A DNA stretch of 64,000 nucleotides from Vicugna vicugna (Eukaryota), in NCBI GenBank assembly GCA_013265495.1, contig MU057576.1, positions 406,982 to 470,981 of the forward strand, given 5' to 3'. The position numbers were made by a program, and so were the translations under genes. Below, one piece after another: positions 2,998 through 24,602 of this stretch. Under the pieces are notes generated by a model, which saw nothing but the letters and a program-made list of their open reading frames with translations, did no database searches and was not told where the DNA came from. How positions within the stretch are numbered: position 1 is the first letter of the stretch; each line of letters begins with the position of its first letter.

Positions 2998-3088
2998 TTC
3001 TTGTCAAGATGGCGAAAAAAAATAAAGTGAATGAGTGAGTGAATGATGTGGAAGAGAAAGGTTAAAGAGATAAAGAAGAGGTCAACAG

Positions 3089-3249
3089 TGCCCACGTCGG
3101 GACCCGGGTCCAGGGCACAGACGGCCCGGGCGTGTGCGTTGATCTGGACGTGCAGAGTTCCTGTACTGGCTTCGTACAGACGCACCTGCCCGTCCCCATA
3201 GCCTGCTGCTATGGTCCCCTGCCACAGCTGCATGGAAGGGCACGGGACT
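3089..3249 (-). pseudogene. WDR54: WDR54 exon (VPCPSMQLWQG...ALDPGPDVG), donor lost
   Basis: Acceptor at 3251-3250. Similarity ends at GTGGGCA with no GT donor. Confidence 0.88.
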
Positions 3250-3347
3250 CTGCAAGGGTGATAGCCCACTTTGATTTCCCAGACCTGGGCCCACTCCCAC
3301 CCTGAAGCTACCTCAGGAAGGCGTCAGCCCCCTTCTGCCTCACCTAC

Positions 3348-3385
3348 CTGAATACTGGAATTTGGGTCAGTAATTTGAATTCAGG
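3348..3385 (-). pseudogene. WDR54: WDR54 exon remnant (PEFKLLTQIPVF), 5' half missing
   Basis: Donor AG|GTAGGT present. The expected upstream DCVADMVTADDSG-like codons are not found. Confidence 0.75.
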
Positions 3386-4016
3386 CACTCACTGGATGGA
3401 TGATGAAACAGGCCACAGTGTCATGACCTTCTGGAGGTCTTGCAGTGAGACACTCAGAGTCACGACTAGACTCTGGGCCTCCCGAGAGCCCCTAACCCCG
3501 AGCAGCAGACACAGCCCACGGGCCCAGCTCTGTAGCAGGTGCAGCGCAGGGTGCAAATTGGAAGATACATACCCTGTTCCCAAGATGCTTACGACCCAGC
3601 TGGGGAAACAGGACTTGTCTCTGAGGGCAGTATCAATTCAAGGCTCAGCTGAGGGAGACCAGTGGGAGCTGGAATAGGGGGGTGGCTTCCTGAGGTGGCA
3701 CTGGGGTGGGCCTGAAGAGGCAGGACTCGCCCAAGTTCAGAGAAGGAAGCTACACATGTCAGAGCAGGAAAGCATCTCGGAAACTGTCTGCCCCAACTCT
3801 TCAGTTCACACCAGCACTGTAAAGTCTTGGAAAACGACTAAATGCCATGTAAATGGAAAGTAACCCTGGCGCTGTCACTGGACCCAAGGTTGCTGAAGCC
3901 TAGGAGAGTCTAGTAATTTGCCTAAAGTCATCCAGCTGCTTGAACCCAGCTCTCCTGCCTCCCAAGGCAGGGAAGGCCCCCACACCCACTGGAACAGGTA
4001 GGCGAAATCCACTTAC

Positions 4017-4144
4017 CTGGCCCTGGGCAGGCTCGGTGGCAATGTCTGTGACTGGTGTCTGGTGTCCAGCCGGCTCTTCACTCAGTACGATGTGGGGACC
4101 CTTGGCTGGGATGTCAAACACCAGTACCCGGCCTGACCATGCTC
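4017..4144 (-). pseudogene. WDR54: WDR54 exon (AWSGRVLVFDIPAKGP...EPAQGQ)
   Basis: 128 nt, AG/GT flanked, phase-consistent with neighbours. Confidence 0.9.
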
Positions 4145-4466
4145 CTGCAGAAGCAGTGCTCCACTGATGGCTTCCTGATCCTCCCAGGTCCCCAGCCCCC
4201 ACACTCAGCACTTCCTCCATCCCAGAGACCTTAGTAACAAACCCACCTCTCATTGCTCCAACCAGCCTTGCCCCCATATTCACCACCCTTATCCTATCCC
4301 ACCCTGCCCCTCTAAACCCCTCCACAGCTTTTTGGAGACTTCAGACCCCTCTTCACTCCCACCCTTCCCTCTAACCCTCCAGTTTGCTCAGATCAGCATC
4401 TTCCTGGCCAAAGCACACACCCCTATGCCCCAGAACCCCACAATGCCCTGCCCTCGGCCCCCTCAC

Positions 4467-4520
4467 CCACACAGATGAAGTGACCACTGGCAGCAATTCC
4501 TCGGGCAAACACAGCCTGTA
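4467..4520 (-). pseudogene. WDR54: WDR54 exon (VQAVFARGIAASGHFICVG)
   Basis: 54 nt, AG/GT flanked. Confidence 0.9.
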
Positions 4521-4610
4521 CTAAGTATGAGAGGGGAAAACTATTAGAAATAGCATCTCCCCATCCCCACAAACACTCCCTACCCCTGCCCCACGCAGTC
4601 CCACAGGTAC

Positions 4611-4677
4611 CTAGAGACGCATCTCCAGAGTCCAGTGCGTGCCAATAGACCATGACGGAGCCATCAGACTTGTACAT
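4611..4677 (-). pseudogene. WDR54: WDR54 exon (MYKSDGSVMVYWHALDSGDASL)
   Basis: 67 nt, AG/GT flanked. Confidence 0.9.
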
Positions 4678-5076
4678 CTGGAAGACGGGGTGAGGATGGG
4701 GTCACAATTCAGCTGACCTTTGCTGAGCTCTGTGCTGACTACTCCACGTACTCATGTTAGCCTTAGCCCAATTAATCCTCAAAACCACCCTGGGAGGTCG
4801 GCATTACTTTTATCCCCATTTTACAGAGGAGGACACTGAGGCTCTGAGAAGTCAATTAAATTACCCAAGGACATGCGGCTAGTAAAGGGGCAGATATTGG
4901 AGATGGCACCTGAGAACTGAAAAACAAGGAAGGAGAGAAGATGAGAAACAAGGAGGAAGGAGCTAAGCAAATTAAAAGTTTGGAAATGTTTAGAGGCAAA
5001 TGGGGAAAGGTCTAGGGGCCTTGGGGAGAAGGTGAGAAGACTCTAGTTGGGGAGGGCAGGAAGGTCCTCTTCTTAC

Positions 5077-5139
5077 CTGTATTTCTGGATGTGAAGTGAG
5101 TACCAGCAATACTCGGTAAGGGAGGACACACCAGTGGAC
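5077..5139 (-). pseudogene. WDR54: WDR54 exon (VHWCVLPYRVLLVLTSHPEIQ)
   Basis: 63 nt, AG/GT flanked, in frame. Confidence 0.9.
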
Positions 5140-5160
5140 CTGGAGGGCGGTGAGTCAGGG

Positions 5161-5869
5161 CAGGGAGAGGTGGTCAGAGCAGGGGACACGAGGACTCAGA
5201 AGTGTGGAAATTCAGACGGCTAGACAAGGCCTCTTCCTCGGGGTTTGGAGAGGAGGGGCTGGGTGAGGGCTGGTTTCAGCAGCACCGCTCCCAACTCCAT
5301 GGCTCACCTGGGTGATAAGTGGGGAGCTCACGCCAGCGCCCTCCTTAGCGTGGAGCTGGCGCTGGGCCAAGGGCACCCCCTCAGGAGCAGCGCTGAGAAG
5401 CTGGGCGCTGGGTCCATGGACTACGCCAAAATGTGTGAGGTTGCGCTGCTGCAGCACACTGAGGTTGTTGCACAGGGCGGCCGCCGAGCCTCGAAGGGGA
5501 ATGGAGCGCTCCCGGCAGGAGAAGTGGTCAGAACAGGGGACACGACGACTCTTAAGTGTGGAAATTCAGACGGCTAGACAAGGCCTCTTTTTCGGGATTT
5601 GGTGAGGAAAGGCTGGGTGAGGGCTGGTTTCAGCAGCACCGCTCCCAACTCCATGGCTCACCTGGGTGATAAGTGGGGAGCTCACGCCAGCGCCCTCCTT
5701 AGCGTGGAGCTGGCGCTGGGCCAAGGGCACCCCCTCAGGAGCAGCGCTGAGAAGCTGGGCGCTGGGTCCATGGACTACGCCAAAATGTGTGAGGTTGCGC
5801 TGCTGCAGCACACTGAGGTTGTTGCACAGGGCGGCCGCCGAGCCTCGAAGGGGAATGGAGCGCCCCGGG
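5161..5869. repeat. Tandem duplication, ~354-bp period, of the WDR54 first coding exon plus adjacent intron
   Basis: Units ~5161-5515 and ~5516-5869. Donors at 5307 and 5661 are 354 bp apart. Exonic parts are near-identical. Confidence 0.95.
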
Positions 5870-5877
5870 CGGAACAT
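5662..5877 (-). pseudogene. WDR54: WDR54 first coding exon (ATG-bearing copy)
   Basis: MFRPGRSIPLRGSAAALCNNLSVLQ...VSSPLITQ; 216 nt; donor CAG|GTGAGC at 5661. Confidence 0.9.
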
Positions 5878-6700
5878 CCCAGGGGAGAGACGCCCGAATC
5901 ATCAGGTTCAACAGAGGACAGCGGAGATTCCTGTGGGGACTCGGGGTGTTGTTATGCGGCACTGGGAGAGACCCCTGAGTCTGGGTCATGATGTGATGGG
6001 GGGTCACGTGGTGCGGGGAGGGTATCGTGGAGCAGGTAAGGGGAACCCCAGGGCTGAGTTAATCGGGCGATGCGGGGAATCCCGGAGGAGGAACGGCGAT
6101 GGCACAGGCCCCAGTGGCCCAAAGAGCCCAAGCCGAGGTGGGATGAAGCGAGGTAGCCCCCAGGCCCTATTTCCCTCCGCTTGGCTCCCCTAATACCCGG
6201 GCCAGGTAAGAGATCATAACAGCCCCCCTAAATCGGCTTCCGGTCTCTAGAAGCGTCGTCTCTCCGAATCCGCCGCCACCATAGAGACGACGCACGCACG
6301 CACGGCCGCTGGGTGGGGCCAGAAACACGGAAGTGCGATGCGGGGGCCCGGCTGCCTGGGCCCGGCTGCCGGGGCGACCTTTAGACCAGGGCGGCCCTTA
6401 GAACTGGGAGGCTCCTAGACTGGGGCGGACGCAGAGAGACTAGGAAGCCGTGGAGCTGCAGGGTCTGAGCTGCCGCTGTGGCGATGGCGGACAAAGGCTC
6501 GGTGAGCCTAAGCTCAGCGGAGGGTGCGCCAGAGCGGGGACAGCCCGCTCAGATCCGCGTCCCGATCCCTGGGCCAGCTCGGAGCCACCCGGCGCCCGCC
6601 CACCACGCGGGCGCTCGGGATGGTCAGGGAAGCCGCGTCACTGCGCTGGGGCGGAGAACTCCACCTGCGCCGCGCCCACACAGACGCCCGGTCACACCGG
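5850..6700. promoter_or_regulatory. CpG-rich bidirectional promoter region between WDR54 and C2orf81
   Basis: High CpG density. ETS-type CGGAAGTG at ~6328 and GC box GGGGCGGA at ~6422. Divergent start codons at 5877 (-) and 6484 (+). Confidence 0.7.
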
Positions 6701-9700
6701 GAAGCTGGGGGAAAGGGTTTCAGTGGGTGGTGCAGAGCCCAAGAACAAGAAGCGACTTAGCGTGTAATAAGTCTCTTACATTGAGTTACCCACTTAAATG
6801 GAAAAACCAGAACTGGTCAGGCCCTGGGGAGAGGTGTTGCTAGATGAATGAGCCATTTTGAGAATTTCAGGAGGAAGAAATGGACTATATAACAATGAGG
6901 CTACGCTTGAAAGTCAAATTGTTTAAGTCAAGACAGTTTAAAATAAGAAACAGATTTGGAGAGCATTTGTGCAACAATGTTTCTGGCCCCTGTGGTCAGG
7001 CCACTTCTAGGCACAGTCCTTATCACAGGTGCCACATGAGAGGCTGGGAGGGGAAGGCTAACCAACTCTCCTCTCCCAGACCTACCTGCCCTGCTCTGGC
7101 CAAGCCTGGACTGAGTTGTGGGCCGTTCCCTGGGCTTGCCACCAGCGCTGTTCTCACTAGCAGAGGGGCAGTGAGGCTTAAGGAGTTTTGAGTTCAGCGT
7201 GAGGTTTAGGGAACACAAGTTGAAGGAGAATGAATTTGGGGGAACACCATGTATGAGGCAATAAGGTTAGGCGTGGGGAGGCAAAGGTTTGGGAAGATTT
7301 TGTTGGGAGGTGAGTTTTGGAAGGACTCAGGTTCAGGGAGACTTGTGGGGAAGTGAGGAGGCGCATAAAAATCTGCTATTAATAGATAAACAAGATTATA
7401 CTGTAGAGCACAGGGAAATATACACAAGATCTTATGGTAACTCACAGGAAAATTTGACAATGAATATATATATGTTCATGTATGACTGAAAAATTGTGCT
7501 CTACACTGGAATTTGACACAACATTGTAAAATGATTATAAATCAATCAAAAAAAAAAAAAGAATCTGCTAGTAAATTCCTGGGTCGTTAACGGATTTTGG
7601 GGGACTAGTTTTGGTTTTTTTTTCCTTCTCAGTGGATTTTTCTTGATTATAAAAGGATACAAAATCATTGTAGAAACCTTATAAAATGGAGAGGAGTGTA
7701 GGAAAGAAATATATCCGCCATTACAGTTATTTTTTTTCCCATAATTTTGGGCTTTTCCTTTTCTTCAACATCTGTTGATTTACATATCTGAGATCATAGC
7801 TGATGTAAATTTGTGTCCTGTTTTTTCATTTAACATATCATAAGAATTTTCCTATGGTATTGTAAATTCTTCCTGAAGATTGCCTCCAATCATGGGATAA
7901 TGTTCCATCACATAGCTCGCACACAACTAGCCATCTGTTCTCTTTTTGTTAGACCTATGTTTTCAATATTCTGCTGTTATAAATGACATTACAGAAAATA
8001 TTTTAGAGAATATAGTTTTATTTTCATTTCAGAATATGCTTTTTGGTATATTTATAAAACTGGAATTGATATTTTTGAAAATTGCACATCTTTTCAAATG
8101 CCATCAACAGTTCTACTTTTATGAACTATGTCCTTTGCTTATTCTTGGGGGTCTTATGATTTTTAAAAAAATTTATGTGCAGTTTTATATTTGTGGGATA
8201 TTTATTCTTTTTAATATTTGTTGGAAACATTTTTGTTTGTTTGTTTAGGAAGCAGGATAAAGTCAAGTTCTGAAGGCAGACCTGCCTGCATATGAATTAC
8301 AACTGCACTGCTTCCTTGCTCTCTGATCCTGGGCAAATTCTGTAAAGTGGGGATAAAAATACTCTACTATTTTAGTACATACTCTAAAAAGTATAGCAAC
8401 TGAATCCATGTATGTGACTGATAGGCTTTAAGTGTCAGTACATGGTAATTACTATTACCAGCTTGTACATAGGAATTTTTTAAAAAGTAAGGAAAGGAAA
8501 ATTTGACCTGTATGTATACACTTTTCTACCCATTTGTTTATTATTCTTACATGACGTTTATGCTTAGGTAGTTCTCTCTTACCCAGAGATTCTATGACAA
8601 TTTAAACTACTTTTCCTACATTTTATGTTTTGTTTTTATTTTGTTTTATTTCTGTGTGTGTTTATCCTTTCATTCAGCTGGAATTTATTGAGATGTATAT
8701 TGTGAAGTGAGGACCTAAGTTGATTTGAGGGAGGGGAGGAGGCTCTAAACACACCAATACTTCCAGCACTGTTTGTTGCTCATCTTTCTCAAGTTCTTTG
8801 AACTCTCAAGAGTTTTGAACACTTTAAACTAGTGCAAATAACAAGCACTCTGCGGTTAGAGCTATACATAGCCTGGGTTCAGGGTGTAATCTCAAGCAAA
8901 TGCAGGTAAACTTCTGTCGAGTTTCAGTTTCTTTGTAAAATGGGCTTAGTGAGCTGTTAGGAAAATTGAATTAGCTAGGTCACTCACCCGAGAAGCGTCT
9001 GTCCCATAGTAGGCTCGTAGTAAATTGTCCCTTTCAGAAGGTTTTTCCTTCCTATTAGACAACTTGAGGAAGCTTCCTCCTTCTCCACTCCTGGGTTTCT
9101 CGCCCTGATTTGCCTGTTCCTTTCCCACAGAGGCAGGAGAACCAGGCCCAAGACTCCAGAGTGACCTGACCCAAGGCAGAAAATGCGACATCGCCTAAAC
9201 TTCCGGTGCTGCAGGGGGACGTCCTGCCTGGACGGCTCACTGAGGTGGAGGCGGCAAAGCTGAGGGCTCGCGAGGAGGGTGAGAAGGTGGTGGGCGACAT
9301 CCTGGAGGAGTTGGTGGACCAAGTGATGGATGACGTCTGCAAATCCTAACTGGAACGGCAGGTGGGGCTGGATCCGCGTCCTCCAGACCCATCTCCTCTC
9401 TCCCTGACCCCTGCCTGCTGGACTGAGACCCTCTCTCGCCTCCGCAGTGCATTCCGTACACCGTGAACGGGGCACGGGAGACCATACTCCAGATGGGCCA
9501 GATGCGATTCATGCCCCGGGATGAGGGAGAACCCCACCTGGCAGAGGACACCACGTGGGCGGAGGACGAGGAACCCTCACCTTGCCCGACTGACACCTGG
9601 GCTCTGGGAGCCTTGCCCGTGCGGTGCGCGCCCTCCTCGGTGGAAGGGAAGACCAGCCAAGGCAAAGAAAGCTCCTTCCCACCTCCCGCCCCCGCCCGGC

Positions 9701-10398
9701 CGCGTCTCTATTCTCTTCAGCGCCTCTCTGGGCTGCTCCTGCCTTAGTTCCTCTGTCTCCTGTGCCCGCGTCTCGCCATCAGTTTTCTTCCCTCTCCCGC
9801 CTGGGGTTCCCATCTGAGAGCTGGGCCCCAGCCCCAACCTCCAGTTCCCTACTTTAATCCTAGGCCTACCGTCGCCAGGCTTCAGTTCCAAGCTGACCTT
9901 CCCCAGTCCTGGCCTCTGTTTTCTCGCCACGCACCTGGGGCTCCCCTCTGTGGCCCATAGCCCCAGATCCAAACTATGGCCAGGTGCCAAGTGGCCCAGC
10001 GGCTGGGTGGGGGAGGCCGAGTTGCTGGGTGAGATTTGGGTGGGCCACACCCGTGTACCCCCGCAGGGCCTGGACCCCAAGGATCAGGAGAGCCAGGATC
10101 TTCAGAAGGGGTCTCACCCTGCGCCTGGACTTCTCAAGGCCAAGTCCCAGGTGGTGAGGAAGCCCATGTTGCTGCCAAAAGCGCCGAAGATGGCTCCTGG
10201 TGTGAGCATGTGGAAACCAGCCACCCAGGAGCTGCTTAGCCCTGCTGAACCTCAACATGAGGACAAAGAGGGCAGCACCTCTCGTCCCATCCAAACGGGT
10301 GCCCTAGAACCGCAGGTGATGGTGGCACCGCTAACAGAAAAGTCAGGTCTCCAATATCATCACTCCACTGCAAACACCTGCCCCATCCTGGGCCCTGA
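6484..10398 (+). pseudogene. C2orf81: C2orf81 homolog, unprocessed pseudogene
   Basis: Exon 6484-6501 (MADKGS|GTGAGC), exon 9131-9361 with in-frame TGA 9167 and TAA 9347, and last exon from 9448 (CIPYTV...RDEGE...WAEDEEP...LWPGAKWPSGW...RVPPQGL). Also TGA 9815, frameshifts, and AATAAA at 10444. Confidence 0.88.
7379..7561 (+). mobile_element. Short L1 3'-end insertion
   Basis: L1 3'UTR motifs and A-tail; flanked by aatctgcta direct repeats. Confidence 0.8.
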
Positions 10399-11141
10399 AC
10401 CTCAGGCAGTGGGAATCTGCCTACCTTCTGTCTGTCTGCCAGAAATAAACACCTGACTTGCTTTAAGAATTGGCCCCATGTGTGTCAGTTTCTTCCAAGT
10501 GTGTGTTCTCACGGAACTGGAGAGGGGCAGTTGTCCCACAGGCCTAGAAGAAGCCAGAACACTGACTCCTGGGAATAATTGCATTACCACCCTTAGGGGA
10601 CCCTGCTTTAGGGCCAAGGTGACTCCCCAGCAGAGGCAGTCTGGAGAGCCATCTGTCTGTCCACAAAGGAGCAGATGTAAAAGTTGTGAGTGGGGGTCTG
10701 TCTCAGTTTGGAGAATTCATCGAGTCTCATTCCAGTAGGGGAGGAAGGGGATGGCCCTGCTTAAGCACAGAGTGATTCAAGACATGAGGAATTCGATTTC
10801 CAGTCCCTGGGTCTCTGTCAGTTCACCTTAGAGTGCGAATCCAAGTTTTATGTGGAGACAAATCTGAGCCTATGCAGGGCTCAGAGTAGTCCTGGCTCTC
10901 TTGATCTTTGATATGGGCCAGCATTGGAGTGAGGCAATCAGGTTACTAGGAAAAACAGTTTAAGGAGGAACTCACTCTCAGGTTCAAACGGGGAGCTCCA
11001 ACACGTCCAAGAGGGAATGCCTCCTTAAATTTCGTGTCTGCTCCACACCAAGCTCTTGGTTAGTCCCTATTTAGCTTTGGCTAGTCCCTCCCCACCCTCT
11101 ATGTGGGCAAGGCTTCCACTGACAGGCCAGCATTCTCTGCT

Positions 11142-11319
11142 ATGTCACTGTGGTTTCTACTCAGCACCCCAGTCTGGGGTCCCGGCTCCGTCCTCCTCAC
11201 GGTGGTCCTCCTGCTTAGACTAAGTGTGTGTATCTGGCATAAGTGTTATCTCTGGGACCTCCAGCACTGCTCCACAGACCTGACCGGGAAGACGGCAGTG
11301 GTGACTGGGGCCAACAGTG
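11142..11319 (+). CDS. RDH-like exon 1
   Basis: MSLWFLL...DLTGKTAVVTGANSG; donor GTGAGT at 11320. Confidence 0.8.
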
Positions 11320-14300
11320 GTGAGTGCTCATCCTGCCCTGTCACCTCACATGGGCCACAGCCTCCAACAGCCCCAACAGGGGGGGCAGAGAGGAGGATCA
11401 GCACCCTCTCTCACACCCTTGTCTCTCCCCTTGGTCCGCTGCCCTCTCCGCACTCCCCGGACCAGCCTTCTCTGAAGCTGCCCTCCCACAGGCATCGGGA
11501 AGAGCGTGTCCCAGGAGCTGGCCCGCCGCGGGGCGCGTGTGATCCTGGCCTGCCGCAGCCGTGAGCGTGGACAGCAAGCCCTGGCCGAGATACGAGCAGC
11601 CTCACAGAGCAACCAGCTCCTGCTTGGTGAGGTGGACATGAGCTCGATGGCCTCCATCCGGAGCTTTGCTCAGTGGCTTCTGCGCGAGCATCCAGAGATA
11701 CACCTGCTGGTTAACAATGCTGCAGTCTGCGGTGTGTGTCTTCACTTACTTCCCCTAAACGCATTTCAGGAGCCTCCTTTCTGGCTCAGGGACCCCAAAT
11801 CAGGCATCCCCCAAGCCTAAACTGTATATCCTGTGGAAACACTCTTAATTCGGACACTGTCCTAAAAAGCCTACCTTAAGTTGTAGCTTCAGGCTTCACT
11901 GCCCCGATCTTGGCACATACATGCTCCTGTGGCTTTTCTACTGAACCCGCATATATCCTCCCCAGACATCATCTCCCTCAGGGTTGTCATTCTATCACCC
12001 ACCACCTATGTTTTCATCTCCTCCCAAGATTGCCCACAACACTTACCCCAGAGGGCCTTGATGTCACCTTTGCCACCGACTACACTGGACCCTTTCTGCT
12101 CACAAATCTGCTCCAAGGTAAGGAAGGATGTGTGCTTATCTTCTGTGCGGCCCCTGTGTCTTCATTCCTCTGGCATTTTCATGGCTTACCGCCTCCCATG
12201 GCCCCCAGATGCTTGCTGAACGATGCCTCAGTAACTTTTGCTGCACACAGCAGGAGAACCCACTTGGCAGCAGCCTGGATTAGGAGGCTGGTAATGGAAT
12301 CAGTCAGCCCCAAATATGAGCAGCAAGAAGGTGTAAGATCTATGCAGGCCGCCTCCCCTTCCCCCAGGTCTGAGTACTAGCCCGACCAGGAGTCACTCAT
12401 CTCAACAAAAGCTTTCTGAGGTCACTAGGCTGCTAGGATTAAGGACGTTCTCCCTGGGGAGGTGGGGGAGGGTGGCAGGTACATCCTCCCTAACAATGTT
12501 TTCTAGATGGTCTAATGACCTCTTAAAAAGCAAATTAATTTTTGGCCAGGTAATACACGTCCAAAGTACAAAATTGAAAGTGTGAAAGTATACAAAAGGA
12601 TATGCAGAAAAAAAGGAAGAATAGGAAAGAAAGAAGTCTCCTCCTCTCCTTGAAAAGCAGCTCCCCATCCCCCTCCTGGGGGGCAGCTGCCAGTGCCAGG
12701 GTCTCATGTTCCCTTTAGCGGGCAATTAAAGTAACCCCAACGGTAAAGTGCAGAAAGAGCAAGGTCAAACACGATGCATTTGCGAGTATAAATGTTTTTT
12801 TCCCCTTTCCAGCAAGCGGAATATGCTACAACAGCCAGTCTGTGCCTTGCTTAGTAATAGTTCCTTTAAACTGTCTTCTCTCCTGTCTTCTCTCCTGCCA
12901 CTAAATCACCGTTCATCATACCACTGTCTTGCTTCAGGTCCTTTGAAGGTAGTCTACGCTTTATACATATAAAAACTAAGCTGCTTCTCTCCACTTACAA
13001 GTCCCTCTGCAGACTGAGAGCCTCACCGTTGCCTTTCCCAAACCTACACTCTTGTCACCAGCCAGCCAATCTGTATCTCTCGGACCACACTCTGTTTTAA
13101 TTCTGGCTGCACTTTTGCACATCGGTTTTCCTTTATCTGGAATATCCCTTCCCATCCCTTTAAGGCAGAGTAGCTTTAGCTCAGCTGCCAACACTCAGCA
13201 CAGATACTGCTTGTGCTGTGGGCTCTGCCCTGACCCCTCTGCCTCCCCAGCTGCCCCCATTTCTAGGGCTCCCTTCGCCTCTGTGCCCGTCTCTGTTCCT
13301 GCACTGACGCTGCTGCATGAAGATCAGCCTCCAGCTTGGCTGTGAGCCCCTTTGGCCTTTATGTCACTGTCTCTGAAAGTTTGGGGTTCATTGTCCTCTT
13401 TAAGAATAATTTTCTCTCCAAAAAGTTTTCGCTACATACCTCCTGCTCAACTTTTCATTTGTGATTCTTCCTTTAAATGTAGGCTCAAGACAGTCTTAGC
13501 ATTTTGAAAGAATAAGTAAACTCATACGTGACAGCTAGTATCTTTCATACTTTATATAATCCGGAGTTCTTTCTTTTTATTAGAGTTAGATACTCTTTTT
13601 TTTCTTTTCCTTTTTTTAAGATTTAACTTGTCCTCTTGAGAGTAATTATACTTTCCTTTTTTTTAAGGTAGTTCAAAAAAAATTTTAAAGCCCCACTTTT
13701 CCAAGTATTTCTGCATACGTTTCTTGTCCCCTAAACTTAGCACCCATATGTCCTTAGCACGTAGTTTGTGTCTTTCATAGTCCAGGGGCCTAATGGATAT
13801 AGTTCTGCGATGAATAAGTAAGTGACTGAATCTATGAATGTGTGAAAGACAGCTTTCACAGCGTTTCCAGTCTCTCCTTCCCTCTCTTAGCCGTCAGTGA
13901 GATAAAAACATGAACCAGGGTCAATTGCATTACCTCCAGCTGGCAGGTGAGAAGAGCAAGGCAAAACCCCACTTTAATTTTAGGAAAGGAAACCAAAAAA
14001 CTCCCACAAAGACCGAAAAACAAAACCCCCAAACAAAACAAAAGACACACTGAAATACAAGAGGAAAAGCGTGAGGAAAGCAGCTGGAACGGAAACGCAG
14101 CCTCTGGCACACCCAGCTCCCCGCGCCTCACCTGGGCGCCTGCGCGGGGGCCGCGCTCCTGACAGCCCAGGAGGGGCCCCGCCCCCCCCGGCTCCTGGAG
14201 AAGCAGGCTGGGGGGCGGGCGTGGGCGTGAACTCCCGGCCTTGCCCTGAGAGTGTGTGGTCCTCTCTCCTCCCAGGGGCCCTACAACGGGCGGGGGCAGC

Positions 14301-15376
14301 CCGAGTGGTCAACGTGTCTTCCTTCCGGCAAGAGAAAGGGTACATTGACGAGAAACATCTGACAGGGGCTGGTAGACCTTTGACCTTCAACCAGAACTAT
14401 GACTGCAGCAAACTGCTTTTGGCCTCATTCACTGGGAAGCTTGCCCAGAGACTTCAAGGGACAGGTAACTGCCCCTGGCGGCCCCTCCTCCTCCACTGCC
14501 AGGGCTTCCTCCCAGTCCTTCGCATCTCATCCCAGTATGTTCTGACCATGAAATATTCCCAGTATCCCCCCAGCCAGCTGTTAACCTCCACCCTTTGTCA
14601 TCTGTGCGCCCTCTATTTCTCTCAACCCCATCTTCACGTCTCCATTTCAACCCTTTTTCCGACACTCATCACCCACAACTCCCTCTCTCCCAGTATTTTC
14701 CAATACCAACACCATCCATCGTGTTCCCCCTAAAGTTCACCCCGCGCTTTCAAATACTTAAGTCTGCTTCCTGGCTCGGATATCGCCATTCATGTGAGTT
14801 ACAGATCCCTGCCTTCTGGCACCACCTCGAGTCCCTGGTCACCTCCACCGGGCAGGGCTGGTAGGGCCCTCCCCTCTTTGCACATCCTAGAGCCACGTTT
14901 AACCCTTTCCTCCTCTCACTGCGCTTTGCACTACCGTTGTCTCTGTCTCTCGCAGGTGTGACTGTGAACTCCGTGGACCCTGGCGTTGTGTACACGGAGA
15001 TCATGAAGAATTTCTCTTGGTTATATCGTTTCATCTTCTGGCTCCTTAGCTTCTTCTTTAAGGTGGGTGGGGAGGAGCTGGCTCTGCCTGAAGGGGTTGG
15101 GGCAGGGGGTCTGCTGCTCAGCGTGTCCCTTCAGGCTACAGCCTGACTGGCTTTTATTCCTCCTCCCCAACCCTCGTGTCTCCGCAGAACAGCAAACAGG
15201 GTGCAGTCCCAGTGCTCTACCTGAGCTTGGCAAAGGAGCTAGATGGCATCTCTGGAAAACATTTTAGCAGTTCCGGTGTGATAACTCTTGCCCCTAAAGC
15301 TGCCCAAGATCCTCACGTTGCCCAAAGCCTCTGGGATACTTCAGCCCAACTAACAGATCTAGACAAGATGGACTGA
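11142..15376 (+). CDS. Retinol dehydrogenase 11/12/13-DHRS13-like SDR; six exons, 330 aa if spliced ancestrally; possibly a young pseudogene
   Basis: Exons 11142-11319, 11492-11731, 12028-12117, 14276-14464, 14956-15062, 15188-15376 sum to 993 nt with no stops. Motifs TGANSGIG, VILACRS, LVNNAA, VVNVSS, YDCSK, VDPGVVYT; hydrophobic N-terminus. Exon-3 acceptor is non-canonical. Confidence 0.8.
11492..11731 (+). CDS. RDH-like exon 2
   Basis: IGKSVSQELARRGARVILACRS...LVNNAAVC; 240 nt; AG/GT flanked. Confidence 0.85.
12028..12117 (+). CDS. RDH-like exon 3 (acceptor mutated)
   Basis: LPTTLTPEGLDVTFATDYTGPFLLTNLLQ; donor GTAAGG; preceded by CAA, not CAG. Confidence 0.75.
14276..14464 (+). CDS. RDH-like exon 4 (catalytic Ser and YxxxK)
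   Basis: ALQRAGAARVVNVSS...NYDCSKLLL...LQGT; AG/GT flanked. Confidence 0.85.
14956..15062 (+). CDS. RDH-like exon 5
   Basis: VTVNSVDPGVVYTEIMKN...FFK; AG/GT flanked. Confidence 0.85.
15188..15376 (+). CDS. RDH-like exon 6 (terminal)
   Basis: NSKQGAVPVLYLSLAKELDGISGK...AQSLWDTSAQL...TGA. Confidence 0.85.
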   Translation, partial: NSKQGAVPVLYLSLAKELDGISGKHFSSSGVITLAPKAAQDPHVAQSLWDTSAQLTDLDKMD

Positions 15377-15544
15377 CCTCTGTGACCCCTGCCCCGACTC
15401 GCCACCTTCCCCCTGACTCCCAGCCCTCACTCGGATTATGTCTTCTGCCTGTCAGTTCCAAGGAACCATCAGGCACCTTGTTCGGTGTAATCGCCACTTC
15501 CTCTTCCTGTTGGCTCCACGCATGAGAGCTCAGCTTAGCCTGGG

Positions 15545-15880
15545 GACAGCTCCAGCTTCTACTTCATAGTCAGTTCTCAGATAGTAGTGTTCTTCTCTTG
15601 GACACTAGGATCTCCAAACCTACCGAGCCCCGTGTTGTGGTGACGGGGGAGTAAAGGTCCTTCCGGTGGTCTATGAGGGTTCCTGGCTTTGGGGGAGGCA
15701 GCACCACATAGTGTCCTCTGGATGAAGGCATATACCACACGGCTGCAGGACAGCACCCAGCTGCACAGGGTGTTGTCTCCCAGCTGGTACGGTAACTGCC
15801 CGGGTAATGGTTCCATCTTTCTATCAGACCAGCTGCTCCTGGATGCTGAGTCATGTGATAAGGCAGGTGAATTCTCAGAG
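15545..15880 (-). mobile_element. ERVL-type integrase fragment
   Basis: Minus-strand HPGAAGLIERWN and, in another frame, QLGDNTL..W......VYA..QR; both resemble recalled ERVL integrase. Confidence 0.75.
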
Positions 15881-15925
15881 TGAGAGCCCACTGCTTCTTT
15901 TCTGGGGTCTTTGTTGATCAACAGG

Positions 15926-16024
15926 TTTTTGTTTTGTTTTGTTTTTAATGGTGGTGCTGGAGATTGAACCTAGGACCCTGTGCATGCTGAGCATGCTCTC
16001 TGCCACTGAGCTGTACCCTCCCCT
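15926..16024 (-). mobile_element. tRNA-derived SINE (Vic-1-like)
   Basis: A box, B-box-like GGTTCAATCTC and A-rich tail on the minus strand. Confidence 0.8.
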
Positions 16025-17455
16025 CATCAACATAAATTTTGGAATCAGTTTTTCAAATTTCACAGAAACAAATCCTTTAGGGATTTTGCTACATCTACTT
16101 GGCAGGATTGACGTTTTTATGATAATGTGTTGTCCTAAAAATGAACAAGGTGTACTTACATCTATTTAAATCTTATTAATACCTTCATAAAATTTTGAAT
16201 AATTTTATCAATAAAGATCATGCATAAGTCTTAATATAGTTCCTTGCTTTTTATGCTATTGCACATGGTATTTTAAAATTCATATATTAATCATATATCA
16301 AACAAGTTTATTAAGGTTTCTAATTCTAATAAGTTATCTGTAGATTCTTTTGGTTTTTCCACATAGAACATCACACCATCTAGGGATAATAACAGATTTC
16401 TTTCTTCCCTTTCAACTATTATAAATCTTGTTTCTTTTCCCAGACCTTAATTGATTTTCTAGTATTAAACCAAACTTGCTTTTAAACCAACTTGGTCAGA
16501 GTATTACTTTCATATACATTGCTAAATTTAGTATGCTAGTGTTTTGGTTTGGAACTTTTTACTGCGTTCATAAATGAGACTGGCCTTTACTGCCCTTTCC
16601 CTTACTTGTATTGCCATTGCCTGGTTTTGCTGTCATGGATATATTCATTTTATAAAATGAATTTGTATTTGTGTTCATCCAGGGACATCATATGAGAAGC
16701 AAATGTCAATAAATTGATAGGGGACATAGCTGTGAGGGAAAATGGGGAAGAAGCTGGGATAAGCTGGGGAAATCTGGGAGAACCTGGGAGACCCACCAGA
16801 CTGTGAGACAAGTCTGACCCTGAGTGAAGGAGAGGAGGCTGGGAAGGAGCTTCTTAGGGTGCGGTGCGGTAATTTTTCCATTTTAAACCTCCCTCTCTTG
16901 TTTTGAAAGTATACCATCTATTTCTGCTCTTTATTGGTTAGTCTAAAAATTTTAACCTGTATGTTTAGTTTAACAGTGTCTTTAATCAATATCTTTATTT
17001 TTCTTTTAAACAATACATAGATCTTAGAATTCTTCAACATTAATCATTCCCTTTGAATTTGTATACTTTTGTAACCCGATATTTTAATTATATGATTTCA
17101 TTAATTTCACAAATCAGGTATTTTGTTATTCTCAGTAGCTGATATTTATGTTGACTTACCCATGTATTTCATATTTCCTCTGCTCACTCTTCTTTTTTAT
17201 GTCTCAGATCTTCTGTCTGGGATTATTTTCCTTCTATCTTGAAGTATATGCTTTAGAGGTTCCTTTGATGGGGATTCGTGGTAGACACTTCTAGGTGGCT
17301 CCCAAGGTCCCCGCCCCCTTGTGTGCACATTCTCCATAATCTCCTCCTCCTGAGTGTGCAGAGACTCCTGAACACGATGGCAGTGCACTCCTGCGATTAT
17401 GTTATGTATCTGGTAAAGGGGTTTGCTGATGTAATGAAAGCCAGAACCATTTGGC

Positions 17456-17498
17456 TGTGTGTGTGTGTGTGTGAGTGTGTGTGTGTGTGTATGTGTAT
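17456..17498. repeat. (TG)n microsatellite
   Basis: Read directly from the sequence. Confidence 0.95.
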
Positions 17499-17619
17499 GA
17501 ACAATATTTTTTCATGTCTACCATAGTTTTCTTCAACTCTTTCTGTTACATGTTTCTGTGTTTGAGTTCCTCAAAGCTTTCCAAGGTTTGTGTCATTCAT
17601 TAATTTATTCATTAAATAA

Positions 17620-18075
17620 ATAAGCCATTTGCAGCAACATGTATGAACCTGGAGATCACCATTCTAAGTGAAGTAAGCTAGAAAGAGAAAGAAAAATACT
17701 ATATGATATCACTCATATGTGGAATCTAAAAAAAAAAAGAAAAAAGGGTACACTAATGAAGTCATCTACATAACAGAAACAGACTCTAAGAGATAGTAAA
17801 CAATCTTAGGGTTACGGAAATGGGGGGAAGGGGGTTGGAAGTGATAAATTTGGGAGTCTGAGACTTGCAAATGATAGCCACTATATATAAAAAGGGGTAA
17901 GAAACAGATTTCTTCTACATAGCACAGGGAACTATATTCAATATATTGTAATAACCTTTAGTGAAAAAGAATATGAAAACAAATATATGTATATATATGC
18001 ATGACTGGGACATTATGCTGTATGCCAGAAATTGATACAGTATAATTGACTATACTTCAATAATTTAAAAAAAGT
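17620..18075 (+). mobile_element. L1 3'-end fragment
   Basis: gccatttgcagcaacatg...ctatacttcaat followed by an A-tail. Confidence 0.85.
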
Positions 18076-18143
18076 ATCAGTTGTAACAAAATGAAGATGA
18101 ATCTGTGCTCTTGACCCACAATAAAATGCCCATCAATTCTTTT

Positions 18144-18145
18144 AA

Positions 18146-18184
<39 letters not shown>

Positions 18185-18194
18185 ACAAACAAAC
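18144..18194. repeat. (AAAT)n/(AAAC)n microsatellite
   Basis: Read directly from the sequence. Confidence 0.95.
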
Positions 18195-19844
18195 GTGTTT
18201 GTGGTGTGTCAGCTGATCAAGACATCGTTCTATATGTTACTGTCCTACAGTGATGGATAAAATAGACAAGCATCCACAAAGTCAAGTGGTCTGTATTCTA
18301 GTGTGGAGTGAGAGGCATAATAAACACAAATATGTTGTAAGATTCCATAGGCGTGAGTGCTGTGGACACAAAAGAAGCAAGAAAGGAAAGAGGGAGTGCC
18401 ATGATGAGGGGCTGGGGTTGAAATTTTAAATAGGTTGGCCAGGTAAAGACTCAAGAAACCAGTTGACTTTGAGTTCATAAAAAGAAAAGCTATTTTGGGT
18501 GGACCAGACCTAATCAGGTAAGCCCTTTAAAAGGGTTCAGGCTTCCTCAGAAGTCGGAGAGTCTCCTGTTCACCTTGAAGAAGCACACTGCCCCGTTGTG
18601 GAGCAGCCACAGGGCCTCTAGTAGTCGAGGCTTCAGTTCTGCGGTTGCAAGGAGCAGAATTTTGTCAATAACCAGTGAGCTTGGAAGAGGACTAGGAGCC
18701 CAGGTGAGACTGCAGCCCTGAATGACACCTGGACTTCAGCCTGGTGAGATCCTGAGCAGAGGACCCAGCTAACCTGTACCCAGACTCCTGATCCATAGAA
18801 ACCGTGAGACAACACATGTTTTCTTTTTAGCCACTGAGATTGTAGTCATTTCTTATCCAGAAACAGGTCACAAATACAGGATCTAGTAATAGCAAACTCC
18901 TTCAGTTTTATTTGTGTGAAAATGTCTTTATTTCACCCTCATTTTTTAAGAATCATTTTGCTGGCAAAGGTTGAGAGTTATTGTCTCTTATTCTGTTGAA
19001 GATAGTATTTTTCGCCTCTGGCTTTCATCGTTGCTGTTGAGAAATCAGATACTAATCTAACAGTTACTTTGTGGAGAATCTGCTCTCTTGTTCCTTCTCT
19101 ATACTTTAAATCCCCTTTTCTGTTTTTAAAAATAAATGAAACATATTCATTTTATATACTGTAACATTCCAATATCTGTCATCTTTGCAGGTTTGAATAG
19201 TTTATGGCAGCTTGTTTCTTTGTGTGTTCAGTGACTTTGTGCCCTCATGGTGCTTGGAGGTTTAGCTCTAGGAATGATTAGATTCCTAGGATTAAGCTAC
19301 TTTCCCCAGAGGAGTTTACGTTTAGTTTGGCCAGGTTTCCAGGAGTGCTGTACTGACTTGGACCAACTTAACTTACATTTTTGTCTTGGAATTTTTGAGC
19401 CACTCACATGGTATACATTCTGCCCCCAAATTTGTGTGAATACAAACTTATTGTTTAGAATTATAAGTGAGGACTCCCCCACCCCCACCCCGCTACAGCC
19501 AGAACTAAGGATGAGGTGAGCTTCTACCCTCACCGTCTCCCTCTGCAAGGCCCTTTTTCTGTTTGAAGTTCACTTTCTGGGGGGTGTTACTCTTTGAGTA
19601 TCCAGGCTTTACATGTATGGGGAATACTTTTTCATGCCAACCTTCTCTACTCAACCCCAGATTTTGTCTTCTGCCCCTGTTTATGGCCTTGTAAGCCCTG
19701 GTTTCAGGCCCCCAGGGGCTGGCTTCACAAATGCTGGCTCTAGCTGTCACCTGTGCCTTGGGAATCATAATTTCATATCTTCTCTCCCTTCTGAGGCTTT
19801 CCCTTCCTTTCCCACCAGTTCATTCAGACAACACAAATAAACAG

Positions 19845-19875
<31 letters not shown>

Positions 19876-20119
19876 GTTCCATCCAGCGTTTATGGTTGCG
19901 CTGCATCAGGGGCAGTCTCTGTGATACTTAGTCCTCTGTGATGCCAGGAATGGGAGCGTCCAATGTTTGCCTTCCTTTCTCCTTCCTTCTCTCTTTCTTT
20001 CTTTTGCATTTGGATAATCAATTGTCCCGGCACCATTTGTTGAATAGTGTGTCCTTTCCACACTGATTAATAATGTAAATTTTGTCACATCAAAATTTCA
20101 TGTGTATTCAACTGGAAAC

Positions 20120-22508
20120 ATAAAGAGGGAACCACAGCAGGATGGCAGGAGGGGCGTGCTCGCGGTATAAGTGGGCCCCATACCCCGGGGTGGGCGACCC
20201 ACAAGCTGAAGATTTGTTAAGTCGCAGAGGCCCTCCCACAGGAGTGAGAGCTCTAAGCCCCACGTCAGGCTCCCCAGCCTGGGGTTCTGGCATTGGGAGG
20301 AGTAGGAGACCCCGGGATATCTGGCTTTGAAGGCCAGTGGGGCTTAACCCCAGGAGCCCACAGAACTGGGGGAAACAGTTCGTTCTCTTGGGAAGTGTAC
20401 ACAGAATCTTGCATCCACTAGGTCCAAGGGCAGAGTCAGTGATTTTGAAGTGGGAGGAAAGGGGACAGGGCACAATCATTGGAGGAATTACATAGCAAGT
20501 GAGGACAGGACAAGATGGCAGAAGATTTGACTTCCAGTTGACCTTGAGCCTCATGGTGCACCCACAGATGCTGTGACAGTTTCTGGGCTGACCATATAAG
20601 GTCAAAAAGTGGGTGAGGGGGGCATTTCCTGGAAAACCTCGACCGTCCCCCAGAGTAGTTGGAATAATCCTCCTGCTCATTAGTACACGAAATAACCAAG
20701 CCCACAAAACCTAACAACTCCGCACCTCGTGGATGCTCTCTCTCTCTCTCTTGCCTTCTGATGTGGCCCACACTCTGTCTATGGAGTGTGTATCTCCTAA
20801 GCTGTCTTCCCTTCTGAGTCAGAGTGTCCACACCCAGCCTATGGAGTGTGTATGTCTCTAAATAAACGTGCTTTCACTTTACCATGTCTTGCTCTTGAAT
20901 TCTGTCCTGCACGAGGCAAGAACCTATTCCCCCACAACAATTTCATAGGAACCTGTGTCAGAACTGCCTGCTGGTTTTAGAAGTTCTGCTGAGGAGGTAG
21001 GGGGTGGCTGTGGCTTATGCTGAGGGCATAAAAGCTGGTGATGGACATTCCCGGAGTGTTCATCCACATGAGCTCTCCTGGAGGCTGACATTTTGATTGC
21101 GTCATTGGCACCAAGACCCACCCAACAGCCTGTAGGCTTAAGGGCTGGGAGGCCTCAGGCTAAACAACTTACTGGGTGGGAACATAGCCCCACCCATCAG
21201 CAGACCTCCCGAACCACAAACACCTCTAGACAGGGCCCTACCCACCAGAGGTCCAGGACCAAGCTTCACCCAGCAGTGGGCAGGCCCCAGCTCCTCCCGC
21301 CAGGAACCCTGCATAAGCCTGTAGTCCAGCCTCATCCACCAGGGGGCAGATATCAAAAGTAAGAAAATAACAACCCCAAAGCCTGTGGAAGGAATGCACA
21401 AACAGGCCAGACTCTACACTGGGATGGGCTAGACCCTGGCCCTTGGGTGACAAGAGAGGAGTGTGCTGCTGGGACACATAGAACGTCTCCCAGAGGGCCA
21501 CTTCTCCAAGGTCAAGAAATGTAACTAACCTACCTAAAAATACAAATAGAAAGACAGACAACATGAGGCGGTGGAGGAATATCTCCCAGGCAAAGGCACA
21601 AGATAAAATCCCAGAAGAAATAACTGATGAGGAGATAGGCAATTTATGCGAGAAAGAGTTTAAAGTAATGATGGCCAAGATGCTCAGAGAACTCAAGAGT
21701 ACAGATGCACAGAGTGAAGTTCTTAGTAGAGTTGGAAAATATAAAGAACACCCAAACAGAGTTGAAGAATAAAATCACTGAAATGAGTAACACTCTAGAA
21801 GGAACCAAGAATAGACTAAATGAGGCAAAAGAATGGATCAGTGAGCTAGAAGACAGATTAGTGGAAATCACTACTGCAGAACAGAAAAAAGAAAAAAGAA
21901 TGAAAAGAAATGAGAATAGTTTAAGAGAACTCTGGGACAGCATGAAGCACCCTAATATTTGCATTATAGGGGTCCCAGAAAGAGAAGAGAGAGAGAAATG
22001 ACTGGAGAAAATTTTTTGAGAGATAATACCGAAAACTTCCCTAACTTCAGAAAGAAAAGAGTCACTCAAATCAAGGAAACTCAGAGAATTCCACACAGGA
22101 TCAACCCAAAGAGGAACACACCAAGGCACATAGTAATCAAATTGACAAAAATTAAAGATAAAGAGAAAATACTAAAATTATCAAAAGAAAAGCAACAAAT
22201 AACATCCAAGGGAACTCCTATTAAGTTATCAGCTGATTTTTCAGCAGAAACTCTACAGGCCATAAGGGAGTGGCATGATATAAAGTGATGAAAGGGGAAA
22301 ACTTACAACTGAGGATACTCTATCCAGCATGGCCCTCGTTCAGATTTGATGGAGAAATCAAAAGCCTCATAGATAAACAAAAGCAAAAAGAATTCAGCAC
22401 CACCAAACCAGTTTTACAAATGTTAAAGCTTTTAAAGAACTTCTCTAGTCATCAAACCATAAGAAAAAAGAACAAAAAGAAGAAAGAGGGAAAAAAGAAC
22501 TACAACAG
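20120..22508 (+). mobile_element. LINE-1 5'UTR and ORF1 (degraded), interrupted by a solo LTR
   Basis: ORF1 peptides RLNEAKEWISELEDR, PNICIIGVPE, RINPKRNTPRHIVIK, LSADFSAETLQA. Confidence 0.9.
20446..20939 (+). mobile_element. Solo LTR, ERV1-like
   Basis: Starts TG and ends CA; 4-bp TSD ATTT (20442-45 and 20940-43); AATAAA at ~20861. The L1 5'UTR rejoins when it is removed. Confidence 0.8.
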
Positions 22509-23850
22509 ATTGCTTTAGCAATTTGGGGTCTTTCATGGTTCCATATAAATTTTAGAATTATTTGTTCTAGTTCTATGGAAAATGTCATATTTTGACAGGG
22601 GTTGCATGGACTATGTAGATTGCTTTGGTGATATGGTCATTTTAATAGTGTTGGTTCTTCCAATCCATGAGCACAAGATCTCTTTCCATTTCTTTGTATC
22701 ATCTTCAGTTTCCTTTGTCAATGTTTTATAATTATCAGAGTATAGGTAACCTTCGTGGTTGAGTTTATTTTTAAGTATTTTGTTGTTTTTGATGCAATGG
22801 AAATGTTTATGCCAATTACAAAATTCTGATTTTTGAAGTGAGGAAAAAAATGAACAAAGAGCCACAAATGGCAAAATATCCTTTTTTGTGGGTGAATTGT
22901 GTTCCATTGCGTATATATATACTGCATCTTCTTTACCCATCCATCTATTGATGGGCACTTAGGATGCTTCCATATCTTGGCAATTATAAATAATGCTGCC
23001 ATTAATAGCAGAGTGTATGTATCTTTTTGAAGTAATGTTTTTGTTTTTCTCACATATATACCCAGGAGTGGATATATGAGCCATATGGTGGTTTTATTTT
23101 TAGATTTTTGAGAAACTTCCATATTGTTCTCCATAGTGGCTGCACCAATTTACATTCCCACCAACAGTGTACATGGGTTCCCTTTTCTCCACATCCTTGC
23201 CAACATTTGTTATTTGTGATCTTTTTGATAATAGCCATTCTGACGGTGAGATGATACCGCATTGTGATTTCGATTTGCATTTCCCTGATATTAGTGATGT
23301 TGAACAACTTTACATGTTCCGGTGGGCCACCTGCATTTCTGCTTTTGGAAAAACGTCTATTCAGTTCTTCTGCCCATATTTTAAATGGGTTGTTTTTTGT
23401 TTGTTTGTTTTTTAATTGAAGTACAGTTGATTCAACGTATTGTATTAGCTTCCGGTGTGCAGCACGGATGGACTTGGAGGGCATTATGCTAAGTGAAATA
23501 AGTCAGACATGGATAAATACTACTTCACTTACATATGGAATCTGAAAAAATACAACTAGTGACTATAACAGAAAAGAAACACTCACAGATGTAGAGAAGG
23601 AACTAGTTAGTGGTTACCAGTGGGGAGAGGGGAGGGGGAGGGGCAGGATGGAGGTGGAGGATTAAGAGGTACAAACTATCAGGTATAAAATAAGCTACAA
23701 GGATTTGTTGTACAATATGGGGAATAGAGCCCATATTTTATAATCACTATAAATGATATATAATTTTTAAAAATCGTGAATCACTATATTATATCCCTAT
23801 AACATATATTATACATCAACTATACTTCAATTTTAAAAACATGACATTAT
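22508..23850. mobile_element. Mixed-orientation L1 ORF2/3'-end fragments
   Basis: Antisense ORF2 pieces 22508-22830 and 22860-23400, antisense tail 23410-23460, sense 3' end from ~23460. Confidence 0.8.
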
Positions 23851-23886
23851 AAAATAAATACATTTTTTAAAAAACCCTCTACCTAA

Positions 23887-24028
23887 GGAGGAGGGTATAA
23901 TTCAGTGGTAGAGCACTTGCATGCACGAGGTCCTAGGTTCAATCCCCAGCACCTCCATTAAATAAATAATAAACAAACAAACAAACCTAATTACCTCTTT
24001 ACCCCTCTGAAAAAAAATTTTTTTTTTA
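23887..24028 (+). mobile_element. tRNA-derived SINE (Vic-1-like)
   Basis: ggagggtataattcagtggtagagc...ggttcaatcccc followed by an A-rich tail. Confidence 0.85.
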
Positions 24029-24049
24029 ATATAATAGCCAAAGAAGGGC

Positions 24050-24500
24050 TGCTTCCCTGGCGCCCCTGGCTTGAAGCCGCCACCTGAGGTGGCGCCTGCA
24101 GTGAGCCGCCCGGCCTGAGGGGGGCGCCTTCGTCGGCTCAGGCGCAGGCGCAGGCGCTGGCCGAGAACTGGACACTCTGGGGGGCCGGTCTCTTGACTGT
24201 GAGAAGAAAGGGGATCTGTGCGCTTCTCACGCCTTGAGGTAGGGGAAGGGCTGAGGGCGGCGGGCGGCTGTGGGCAGCGCCTGGCGGGACGGGCTGGGGC
24301 GGAGGTCGGGCCTGCCTTCAGGCAGGTGTTGGCGGCCCGGGGCAGCTGCCGGGGCGGGACTGACGCCCAGAGGCCCGAGTCCAGCGCGGTCCGGTCCGCC
24401 CTGCGCCGGGTCTCTGAGGGCAGGGCGGGCAGGCGTGTCTCCTCCGCCGCCTCTCGTGGGCCTTGGGGCGGGCGCCCTGCCGAGGGCCACGACACTTGAG
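24050..24500 (+). promoter_or_regulatory. M1AP: M1AP CpG-island promoter and probable non-coding exon 1 (donor at 24239)
   Basis: CpG-rich. NRF1-like GCGCAGGCGCAGGCGC at 24142. GAG|GTAGGG donor. GGCGGGA motifs at ~24283 and ~24353. The coding exon at 30997 begins at an acceptor, so an upstream exon is required. Confidence 0.65.
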
Positions 24501-24602
24501 GAGGAGGGGCCCATGAGAATGTATTGACTTTCTGTGAAGTCAGAAGAAACCAGTGAATCCTTAGGGTCGAAGAAAAGGTTTAGGTGTTTGGAAGAGGGGT
24601 GT

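Follow-up and report, generated by a model that had tools for sequence, protein, structure and literature searches.

The question raised by this locus is whether three damaged genes found directly upstream of M1AP are what remains of genes that were lost, or a copy of genes that persist elsewhere. The window, by which is meant the whole stretch of DNA analysed, is 64,000 nucleotides of Vicugna vicugna (assembly GCA_013265495.1, contig MU057576.1, positions 406,982 to 470,981 of the forward strand), and at 3089-15376 it carries WDR54, C2orf81 and an RDH12-like gene, all with their introns kept and all damaged, upstream of M1AP (Table 1). An earlier note had described this arrangement, and the observation of three genes with introns and lesions beside M1AP is confirmed; its first interpretation, that the block is a segmental duplicate at a non-ancestral site and may be one unit of an array, is as a whole partly supported. 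The reading preferred here is that a camelid-specific segmental duplication very probably copied the RDH12-like/C2orf81/WDR54 block into the gap between M1AP and SEMA4F, where it would be one member of a dispersed family. The comparisons behind it use annotated proteins from public collections, mapped onto the window with tblastn, the nearest named ones being those of alpaca and camels, and the paralogous copies are known through that annotation and not as DNA.

Intact relatives elsewhere in camelids

Intact WDR54 and RDH12-like genes exist elsewhere in camelids, and the block is therefore regarded as a duplicate and not as a site of gene loss. The claim of a DNA-level duplicate is borne out in that the alpaca and camel annotations hold both genes in intact form, on a chromosome that also bears broken copies. 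The intact alpaca WDR54, a protein of 332 residues (P0222), was found among the 15 listed of the 71 members of a sheep cluster; a protein search with WDR54 gave 103 matches, 12 of them camelid and none of these full length. P0222 is encoded on the same 61.07-Mb alpaca contig as two kinds of WDR54-like models. One kind (P0090/P0195), present in two annotation releases, has 173 of 176 residues in common with the joined exons 2-6 of the window and likewise ends after exon 6, and the intron read-throughs of an older alpaca model agree with the window at 30/30 residues for intron 4 and at 39/39 and 22/22 for intron 6. Another WDR54 type on that contig is without a deletion of two residues that the window copy shares with its camelid parent. 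The dromedary has two WDR54 types on one 57.4-Mb contig and the wild camel has a more distant type. The dromedary models of parental type (P0091, P0092, P0198) are frameshifted in exon 6, which assembly error or further loss may explain.

A search with the RDH12-like protein gave 70 matches, seven of them camelid, and in the main camelid cluster seven of the eight members are 330 residues long. Two intact RDH12-like genes each are present in alpaca, dromedary and Bactrian camel, with altered ones besides. Thus, of the second, intact locus that had been predicted, WDR54 (332 residues) and the RDH12-like gene (330 residues) are there in the alpaca, and an intact camelid C2orf81 is missing from what was found. 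It is hardly credible that the window holds the only copy of the three genes, left by rearrangement and true loss; for WDR54 and RDH such loss is contradicted, at the level of annotated proteins, by the intact alpaca WDR54 with its exons 7, 9 and 10, which are also present in camel models, and by RDH12-like genes that are intact in each of the four camelid species listed. Loss may hold for C2orf81 alone.

Judged from the contigs that carry the models, the family is dispersed over at least three camel chromosomes. Dromedary copies of C2orf81 are on contigs of 124.7 and 45.2 Mb, as against 57.4 Mb for WDR54, and in the Bactrian camel a C2orf81 copy is on a 149.7-Mb contig and the RDH genes are on one of 71.1 Mb. 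In the wild camel one model (P0271) has C2orf81 and RDH fused to a protein tyrosine phosphatase domain. The suggestion that the block is one unit of an array therefore fits less well than a dispersed family whose further copies occupy the same camel chromosome and two others.

The manner of copying can be read from the introns, which have GT-AG ends in all three genes except at lesions and mark the block as copied at the level of DNA and not as a retrocopy. A processed pseudogene was likewise rejected, as introns are present and no flanking duplication was found, and no target-site duplication was found around the block as a whole. The duplicate is at least 12.3 kb in size, with proteins 96-98% identical and intron read-throughs 89-100% identical to those of its relatives, figures that come from annotated proteins and not from paralog DNA. 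Segmental duplications are defined as longer than 1 kb with at least 90% DNA identity.

State of the three genes

The WDR54 copy is cut at its 3' end. Its exons 2-6 join into 176 open codons, 169 of which give the residue found in P0222, exon 8 agrees with P0222 at 50 of 53 residues (Pfam WDR54 positions 213-265 of 334), and the Pfam WDR54 family matches three exons of the copy. For exon 7 tblastn covers only residues 198-209 of P0222, and for exons 9-10 it gave no match within the window. The two 354-bp units that span most of exon 2 differ at 14 positions, 11 in the first 93 and 3 in the last 8; as all differences lie outside the central 253 nucleotides, which are identical, the pattern suggests gene conversion or a mosaic origin. 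The downstream unit retains ancestral residues at WDR54 codons 4-5.

WDR54 and C2orf81 start head to head within a CpG island, which also matches the upstream part of a whale model (P0019). The C2orf81 copy, recognised by Pfam as DUF4639, has premature stops at 9167, 9347 and 9815, has lost the donor of exon 3 (the position of which is set by intron-retaining buffalo and whale isoforms) and lacks about 245 codons from its middle, residues ~152-397 of the hippo protein being unmatched; these lesions are judged against the intact proteins of other mammals and not against a camelid parent.

The RDH12-like copy has been disabled only lightly, and probably recently, unlike both of its neighbours, because a near-identical frame of 330 codons carries only an AA splice acceptor and Asp157. 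The description of each gene as decaying is thus apt for WDR54 and C2orf81, and barely so for RDH, with one splice acceptor and one conserved asparagine affected. Joined at the positions used by intact relatives, its six exons leave all 330 codons open and agree with intact alpaca proteins at 324-325 of 330 residues; adh_short of Pfam matches exon 2 (E 1e-12), and the TGxxxGxG cofactor motif and YxxxK are both present. The exon-3 acceptor is AG in the dromedary paralog P0233, whose model reads through that intron. Intact proteins of camelids and outgroups have asparagine at residue 157, as has 3rd5, the closest solved short-chain dehydrogenase/reductase (SDR), to which the proteins were aligned. 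The asparagine of helix 4 is part of the SDR catalytic tetrad. A second camel RDH12-like subtype (P0305, P0233, P0232) has a two-residue deletion and changes clustered near residues 70-90, and two of the three are without Asn157.

It could be that the RDH12-like copy is a working gene in other animals and that the acceptor change is a recent allele, in which case only two of the three would be fixed pseudogenes. The copy differs from the intact alpaca models at only 5-6 of 330 residues, akin to the 3 of 176 by which the window WDR54 differs from WDR54-like, its cofactor glycine motif and YxxxK are kept, and the frame could be preserved either by a cryptic acceptor 24 nucleotides on or by skipping exon 3. 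Such an allele seems doubtful all the same, as Asn157Asp is a second lesion at a position conserved in solved SDRs, use of the nearest alternative AG brings a stop at codon 198, and the in-frame options cost 8 residues (cryptic acceptor) or 30 (exon skipping) of the core. In its present state the block would be an unprocessed pseudogene cluster that yields neither WDR54 nor C2orf81 at full length and, in this genome, probably no active RDH, although annotated WDR54-like isoforms suggest that the block may be transcribed still.

Origin of the block

In human 2p13 WDR54 and C2orf81 presumably lie between RTKN and DCTN1, and SEMA4F is taken to be the upstream neighbour of M1AP; we further assume that the intact WDR54 lies beside RTKN/DCTN1 and that the block has the same orientation relative to M1AP as in the human order. 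That the neighbourhood is non-ancestral, as had been claimed, finds support in hints from outgroups, in adjacent locus tags for WDR54, C2orf81 and RDH in bowhead and ibex and in a cattle gene list in the available part of PMC12075139, which runs 'HK2, SEMA4F, M1AP' and 'RTKN, WDR54, C11H2orf81, MGC152281, DCTN1' and is not declared there to be genomic order. The parts available of PMC8505495 and PMC7272322 only put these genes in one region. The internal order of the block is ancestral, since one bowhead model spans the start of WDR54, C2orf81 and RDH. As had been reported, exons of RTKN, DCTN1 and SEMA4F were not seen in the window; a Pfam scan of 71 flank frames gave no match (0/71), a weak test because the L1 endonuclease piece went undetected by it. 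In UniRef an elephant WDR54 carries the label 'Semaphorin 4F' and a cattle C2orf81 the label 'Rhotekin', names that were probably taken over by mistake from neighbouring genes.

At the left junction a cut long interspersed element 1 (LINE-1, L1), 93 filler bases and a cut WDR54 exon meet without long homology, and because of this the copying of the block, with its introns and its two-way CpG promoter, to a site between M1AP and SEMA4F would have been non-homologous and of replication type, or would have begun as a larger tandem duplication that was later trimmed. Homologous recombination between the flanking L1s was considered unlikely because they are only 70% identical. WDR54 may have been dead or truncated early and C2orf81 may already have diverged before the copying beside M1AP, with the RDH copy presumably usable, or kept alike by gene conversion, until the recent acceptor mutation.

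A related route is a tandem duplication of the whole interval between the RDH gene and the M1AP promoter, after which the second copy lost everything from WDR54 exon 8 through M1AP. The block does abut the 5' end of M1AP, the cut in WDR54 falls where the parent would run on to RTKN, a deletion would also leave the L1 on the opposite side cut, as it is, and the orientation agrees with the human order. This route is nevertheless unlikely, as positions 1-3088 and 15.4-24.1 kb share no unique sequence (only one poly-A 10-mer) and copies on other chromosomes indicate that the block moves by other means.

Out of 24 public sequencing runs listed for the 731 words of 8900-16000, 14 hold a share of 0.61-0.67, six hold 0.07-0.14 and four next to none; the RNA runs, at 0.07-0.14, are counted neither for nor against expression. 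A share of that size in the best runs is compatible with a version that differs slightly in those animals, and also with contigs that are fragmented, the region being multi-copy. A misassembly, in which L1 repeats led to the joining of M1AP with a genuine copy from another place, could draw on the L1 on both sides, the multi-copy region, the exact internal repeat of 253 nucleotides and the fact that the runs contain only some two thirds of the words. Against it, two false joins would be required, the flanking L1s are old, with an identity of 70%, and the same type of copy is present in an independent annotation, so we hold a misassembly to be very unlikely.

As to age, the window WDR54 has Thr87 where the alpaca and camel parents have alanine, which points to copying before the alpaca and camel lineages split, and the window RDH groups with alpaca genes in the tree (86/90, unstarred), which would point to later copying or to conversion. 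Several points weigh against a camelid segmental duplication into the M1AP-SEMA4F gap, and the disagreement of these two dating signals is one. In the 14 best genome runs the exact version of the window is not demonstrated in other animals. No intact camelid C2orf81 was present in 89 matches, an absence that is weak because the same search missed P0230, a dromedary model. The annotated WDR54-like could be a sister copy beside the parent and not the locus beside M1AP, since in alpaca only some ten accession numbers separate it from WDR54; reading gene order from accession numbers was, all the same, rejected as too weak.

Divergence of C2orf81

In camelids C2orf81 seems to have evolved with unusual speed. 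Across 145 columns of exons 2-3 the window copy differs from a nine-species consensus at 66 and an open-frame dromedary copy at 60, with 30 shared, as against 4-10 in other mammals, and all camelid copies group in a single clade (99/100), at root-to-tip distances of 0.50-0.57 compared with less than 0.12 in other mammals. This divergence is not decay since the copying beside M1AP, because WDR54 and RDH differ only 4% and 2% from their parents. In favour of acceleration, few of the changes are single CpG transitions. Between the window and P0230 the C2orf81 exons differ at 49/149 residues and the RDH exons at 10/108; between P0230 and P0271, that is dromedary and wild camel, C2orf81 differs at 0/135 and RDH at 11/110. 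One camel C2orf81 copy, on another chromosome, has exons 1-3 open and is the same in dromedary and wild camel. In the ESM Atlas the camel C2orf81 piece gives DUF4639 only (0.89).

Exons were also compared with introns, the counts being made on protein read-throughs of 22-35 codons and not on DNA. Between the window and the far C2orf81 copy exon 2 differs at 36/77 codons and the read-through intron at 4-5/29 (p 0.002-0.007; threefold). Weighing against acceleration, p is 0.057 for exon 2 and 1.0 for exon 3 when a second intron serves as the control, the whale intron differs from the window at 10/22, like the exons at 66/142 (p 1.0), and the 86-nucleotide intron 2 may itself be constrained. The intron read-through of P0271 (8/35) is a by-eye count from three frames. 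A pooled exon-intron test (p 0.0004) is not relied on, the pairs being non-independent with the window branch in both. Long relaxation in old duplicates would remain a sufficient explanation for the change in C2orf81.

A bolder scheme would make C2orf81 the core of a camelid duplicon that, in the manner of NPIP in apes, spread over chromosomes with WDR54 and RDH12-like in bursts of positive selection, its function having moved to the dispersed open-frame copy on the 45-Mb camel chromosome and the copies at the ancestral locus being dead; the copy beside M1AP would then place a live two-way promoter upstream of M1AP and on the same strand. It is put forward as speculation, improbable as things stand.

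Flanks of the block and M1AP

Features of the window are collected in Table 1.

Table 1. Features of the window, with positions counted from its first letter
Feature	Position	Strand	Remarks
Old LINE-1, 3'-truncated inside the open reading frame 2 (ORF2) endonuclease	1..2995	+	endonuclease match to solved L1 ORF2, E 8e-15
Younger L1 3' piece nested in the old L1	~641-1244		13-nt direct repeat on its flanks
AT-rich 93-nt left junction, cut L1 to cut WDR54 exon 8	2996..3088	.	WDR54 similarity stops at 3089
WDR54 exon 8, donor and last 2 nt gone	3089..3249	-	AG acceptor kept, no GT donor
WDR54 exon 7, 3' remnant of 38 nt	3348..3385	-	acceptor and first 21 codons deleted
WDR54 exons 2-6	5662-5877, 5077-5139, 4611-4677, 4467-4520, 4017-4144 (span 4017..5877)	-	open, canonical splice sites
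354-bp tandem duplication, most of WDR54 exon 2 and part of intron 2	5164..5871	.	self-comparison
CpG island with head-to-head WDR54/C2orf81 starts	6001..7000	.	GC 0.56-0.66, CpG observed/expected 0.73-0.75
C2orf81 copy	6484..10456	+	exons 6484-6501, 9131-9361, 9448-9663, 3' part of last exon from 9764
RDH12-like short-chain dehydrogenase copy, six exons	11142..15376	+	exon-3 acceptor AA at 12026-12027; Asn157Asp
Repeat-rich gap	15377..24040	.	short interspersed elements (SINEs), L1 3' pieces, L1 ORF1 ~21.7-22.4 kb, inverted L1 pieces up to 23.8 kb
M1AP CpG-island promoter and presumed non-coding first exon	24001..24500	+	GC 0.70, CpG observed/expected 0.74; exon presumed
M1AP coding exons, span 31048..63370	31048-31287, 36339-36524, 37252-37420, 58372-58545, 62146-62308, 63229-63370	+	runs off the window

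On the left the L1 ORF1 at 1476-2171 is 70% like that at 21735-22428 in a self-comparison, and positions 1-600 are presumably the 5' region of the L1. The 3' end of RTKN had been considered for 1-600 because of a motif and was dropped because the stretch runs on into L1 ORF1 across the nested insertion.

On the right the breakpoint must lie within the repeat-rich gap. At 22507-23824, just upstream of the M1AP promoter, minus-strand L1 pieces followed by a plus-strand 3' end resemble an inverted L1 insertion and are a candidate for it. Positions 16756-16824 weakly match (16/23 residues, E 0.002-0.004) the C-terminal tail of P0193/P0194, the far C2orf81 copy. Either this is shared flank, in which case the block reaches 16.8 kb, or the two places carry separate copies of one repeat. 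Five short SINE copies stand at 23886-25064 around both sides of the M1AP CpG island, two of which score as tRNA in Rfam; a scan of 6000-32000 with Rfam gave two tRNA matches, both of them SINE repeats.

M1AP was said to be intact, and this holds for the six coding exons inside the window, which give 358 codons with no stops, AG at five of five internal acceptors and GT at six of six donors; the 3' exons lie beyond the window. Its homologs bear the name meiosis 1 arrest protein. Because the C2orf81-RDH unit is oriented towards M1AP, an effect of the block on M1AP is possible.

Likeness to known systems

The block is most like unprocessed pseudogenes in a lineage-specific segmental duplication, with introns and promoter copied, adjacent genes, a partial end, lesions and intact parents elsewhere. 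It does not differ from a typical block of this sort in kind, although at least three chromosomes are involved here and the lesion load is very uneven among the three genes. RefSeq models of Vicugna pacos named 'WD repeat-containing protein 54-like' and 'retinol dehydrogenase 12-like' (XP_072793536-8, XP_072794410-3) have proteins 98% identical and the same WDR54 end after exon 6; the window differs from them at 3/176 and 5-6/330 residues and has the broken RDH acceptor, as an allele or a sister copy would.

There is also a likeness to the primate core duplicons LCR16a/NPIP (available parts of PMC7419210 and PMC6920530), in a core common to the copies (C2orf81, accompanied or not by RDH or WDR54) that is interspersed with differing flanks, in fast protein change and in one fused model, that with the phosphatase domain (P0271); C2orf81 is present in the window and in both dispersed copies. 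The part available of PMC6920530 describes core duplicons as having a core common to all blocks, generally on one chromosome, with positive selection, with copy numbers that vary in populations and with a testis-biased progenitor from which broad expression arose. The camelid copies differ in being on several chromosomes, in the dromedary on contigs of 57.4, 124.7 and 45.2 Mb, and in that most copies seen are broken. The block is not filed under core duplicons because the single-chromosome feature fails and selection is unproven. Accelerated exons in segmental duplications, as treated in the available part of PMC3906575, share an excess of change in exons over flanking introns of a duplicated gene, with the camelid excess measured on the protein read-throughs described above and not on DNA.

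The type of block, a segmental duplication with unprocessed pseudogenes, is already known. No paper was found on a camelid duplication of WDR54/C2orf81/RDH12-like, although supplements or gene lists in other camel genome papers could mention the genes, and the available part of PMC6598621 has nothing on the locus beside M1AP.

Taken alone, the block is an ordinary cluster of duplicated pseudogenes, of use mainly for annotating the vicinity of M1AP correctly, for mapping reads there and for counts of camelid RDH12-like copies. It is also a pointer, in that camelids appear to have multiplied the block, to have retained at least two intact RDH12-like genes and to have changed C2orf81 far faster than other mammals have. 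If the selection were true, camelids would offer a non-primate parallel to the core duplicons, and the drivers of interspersed duplication could be tested in a second lineage.

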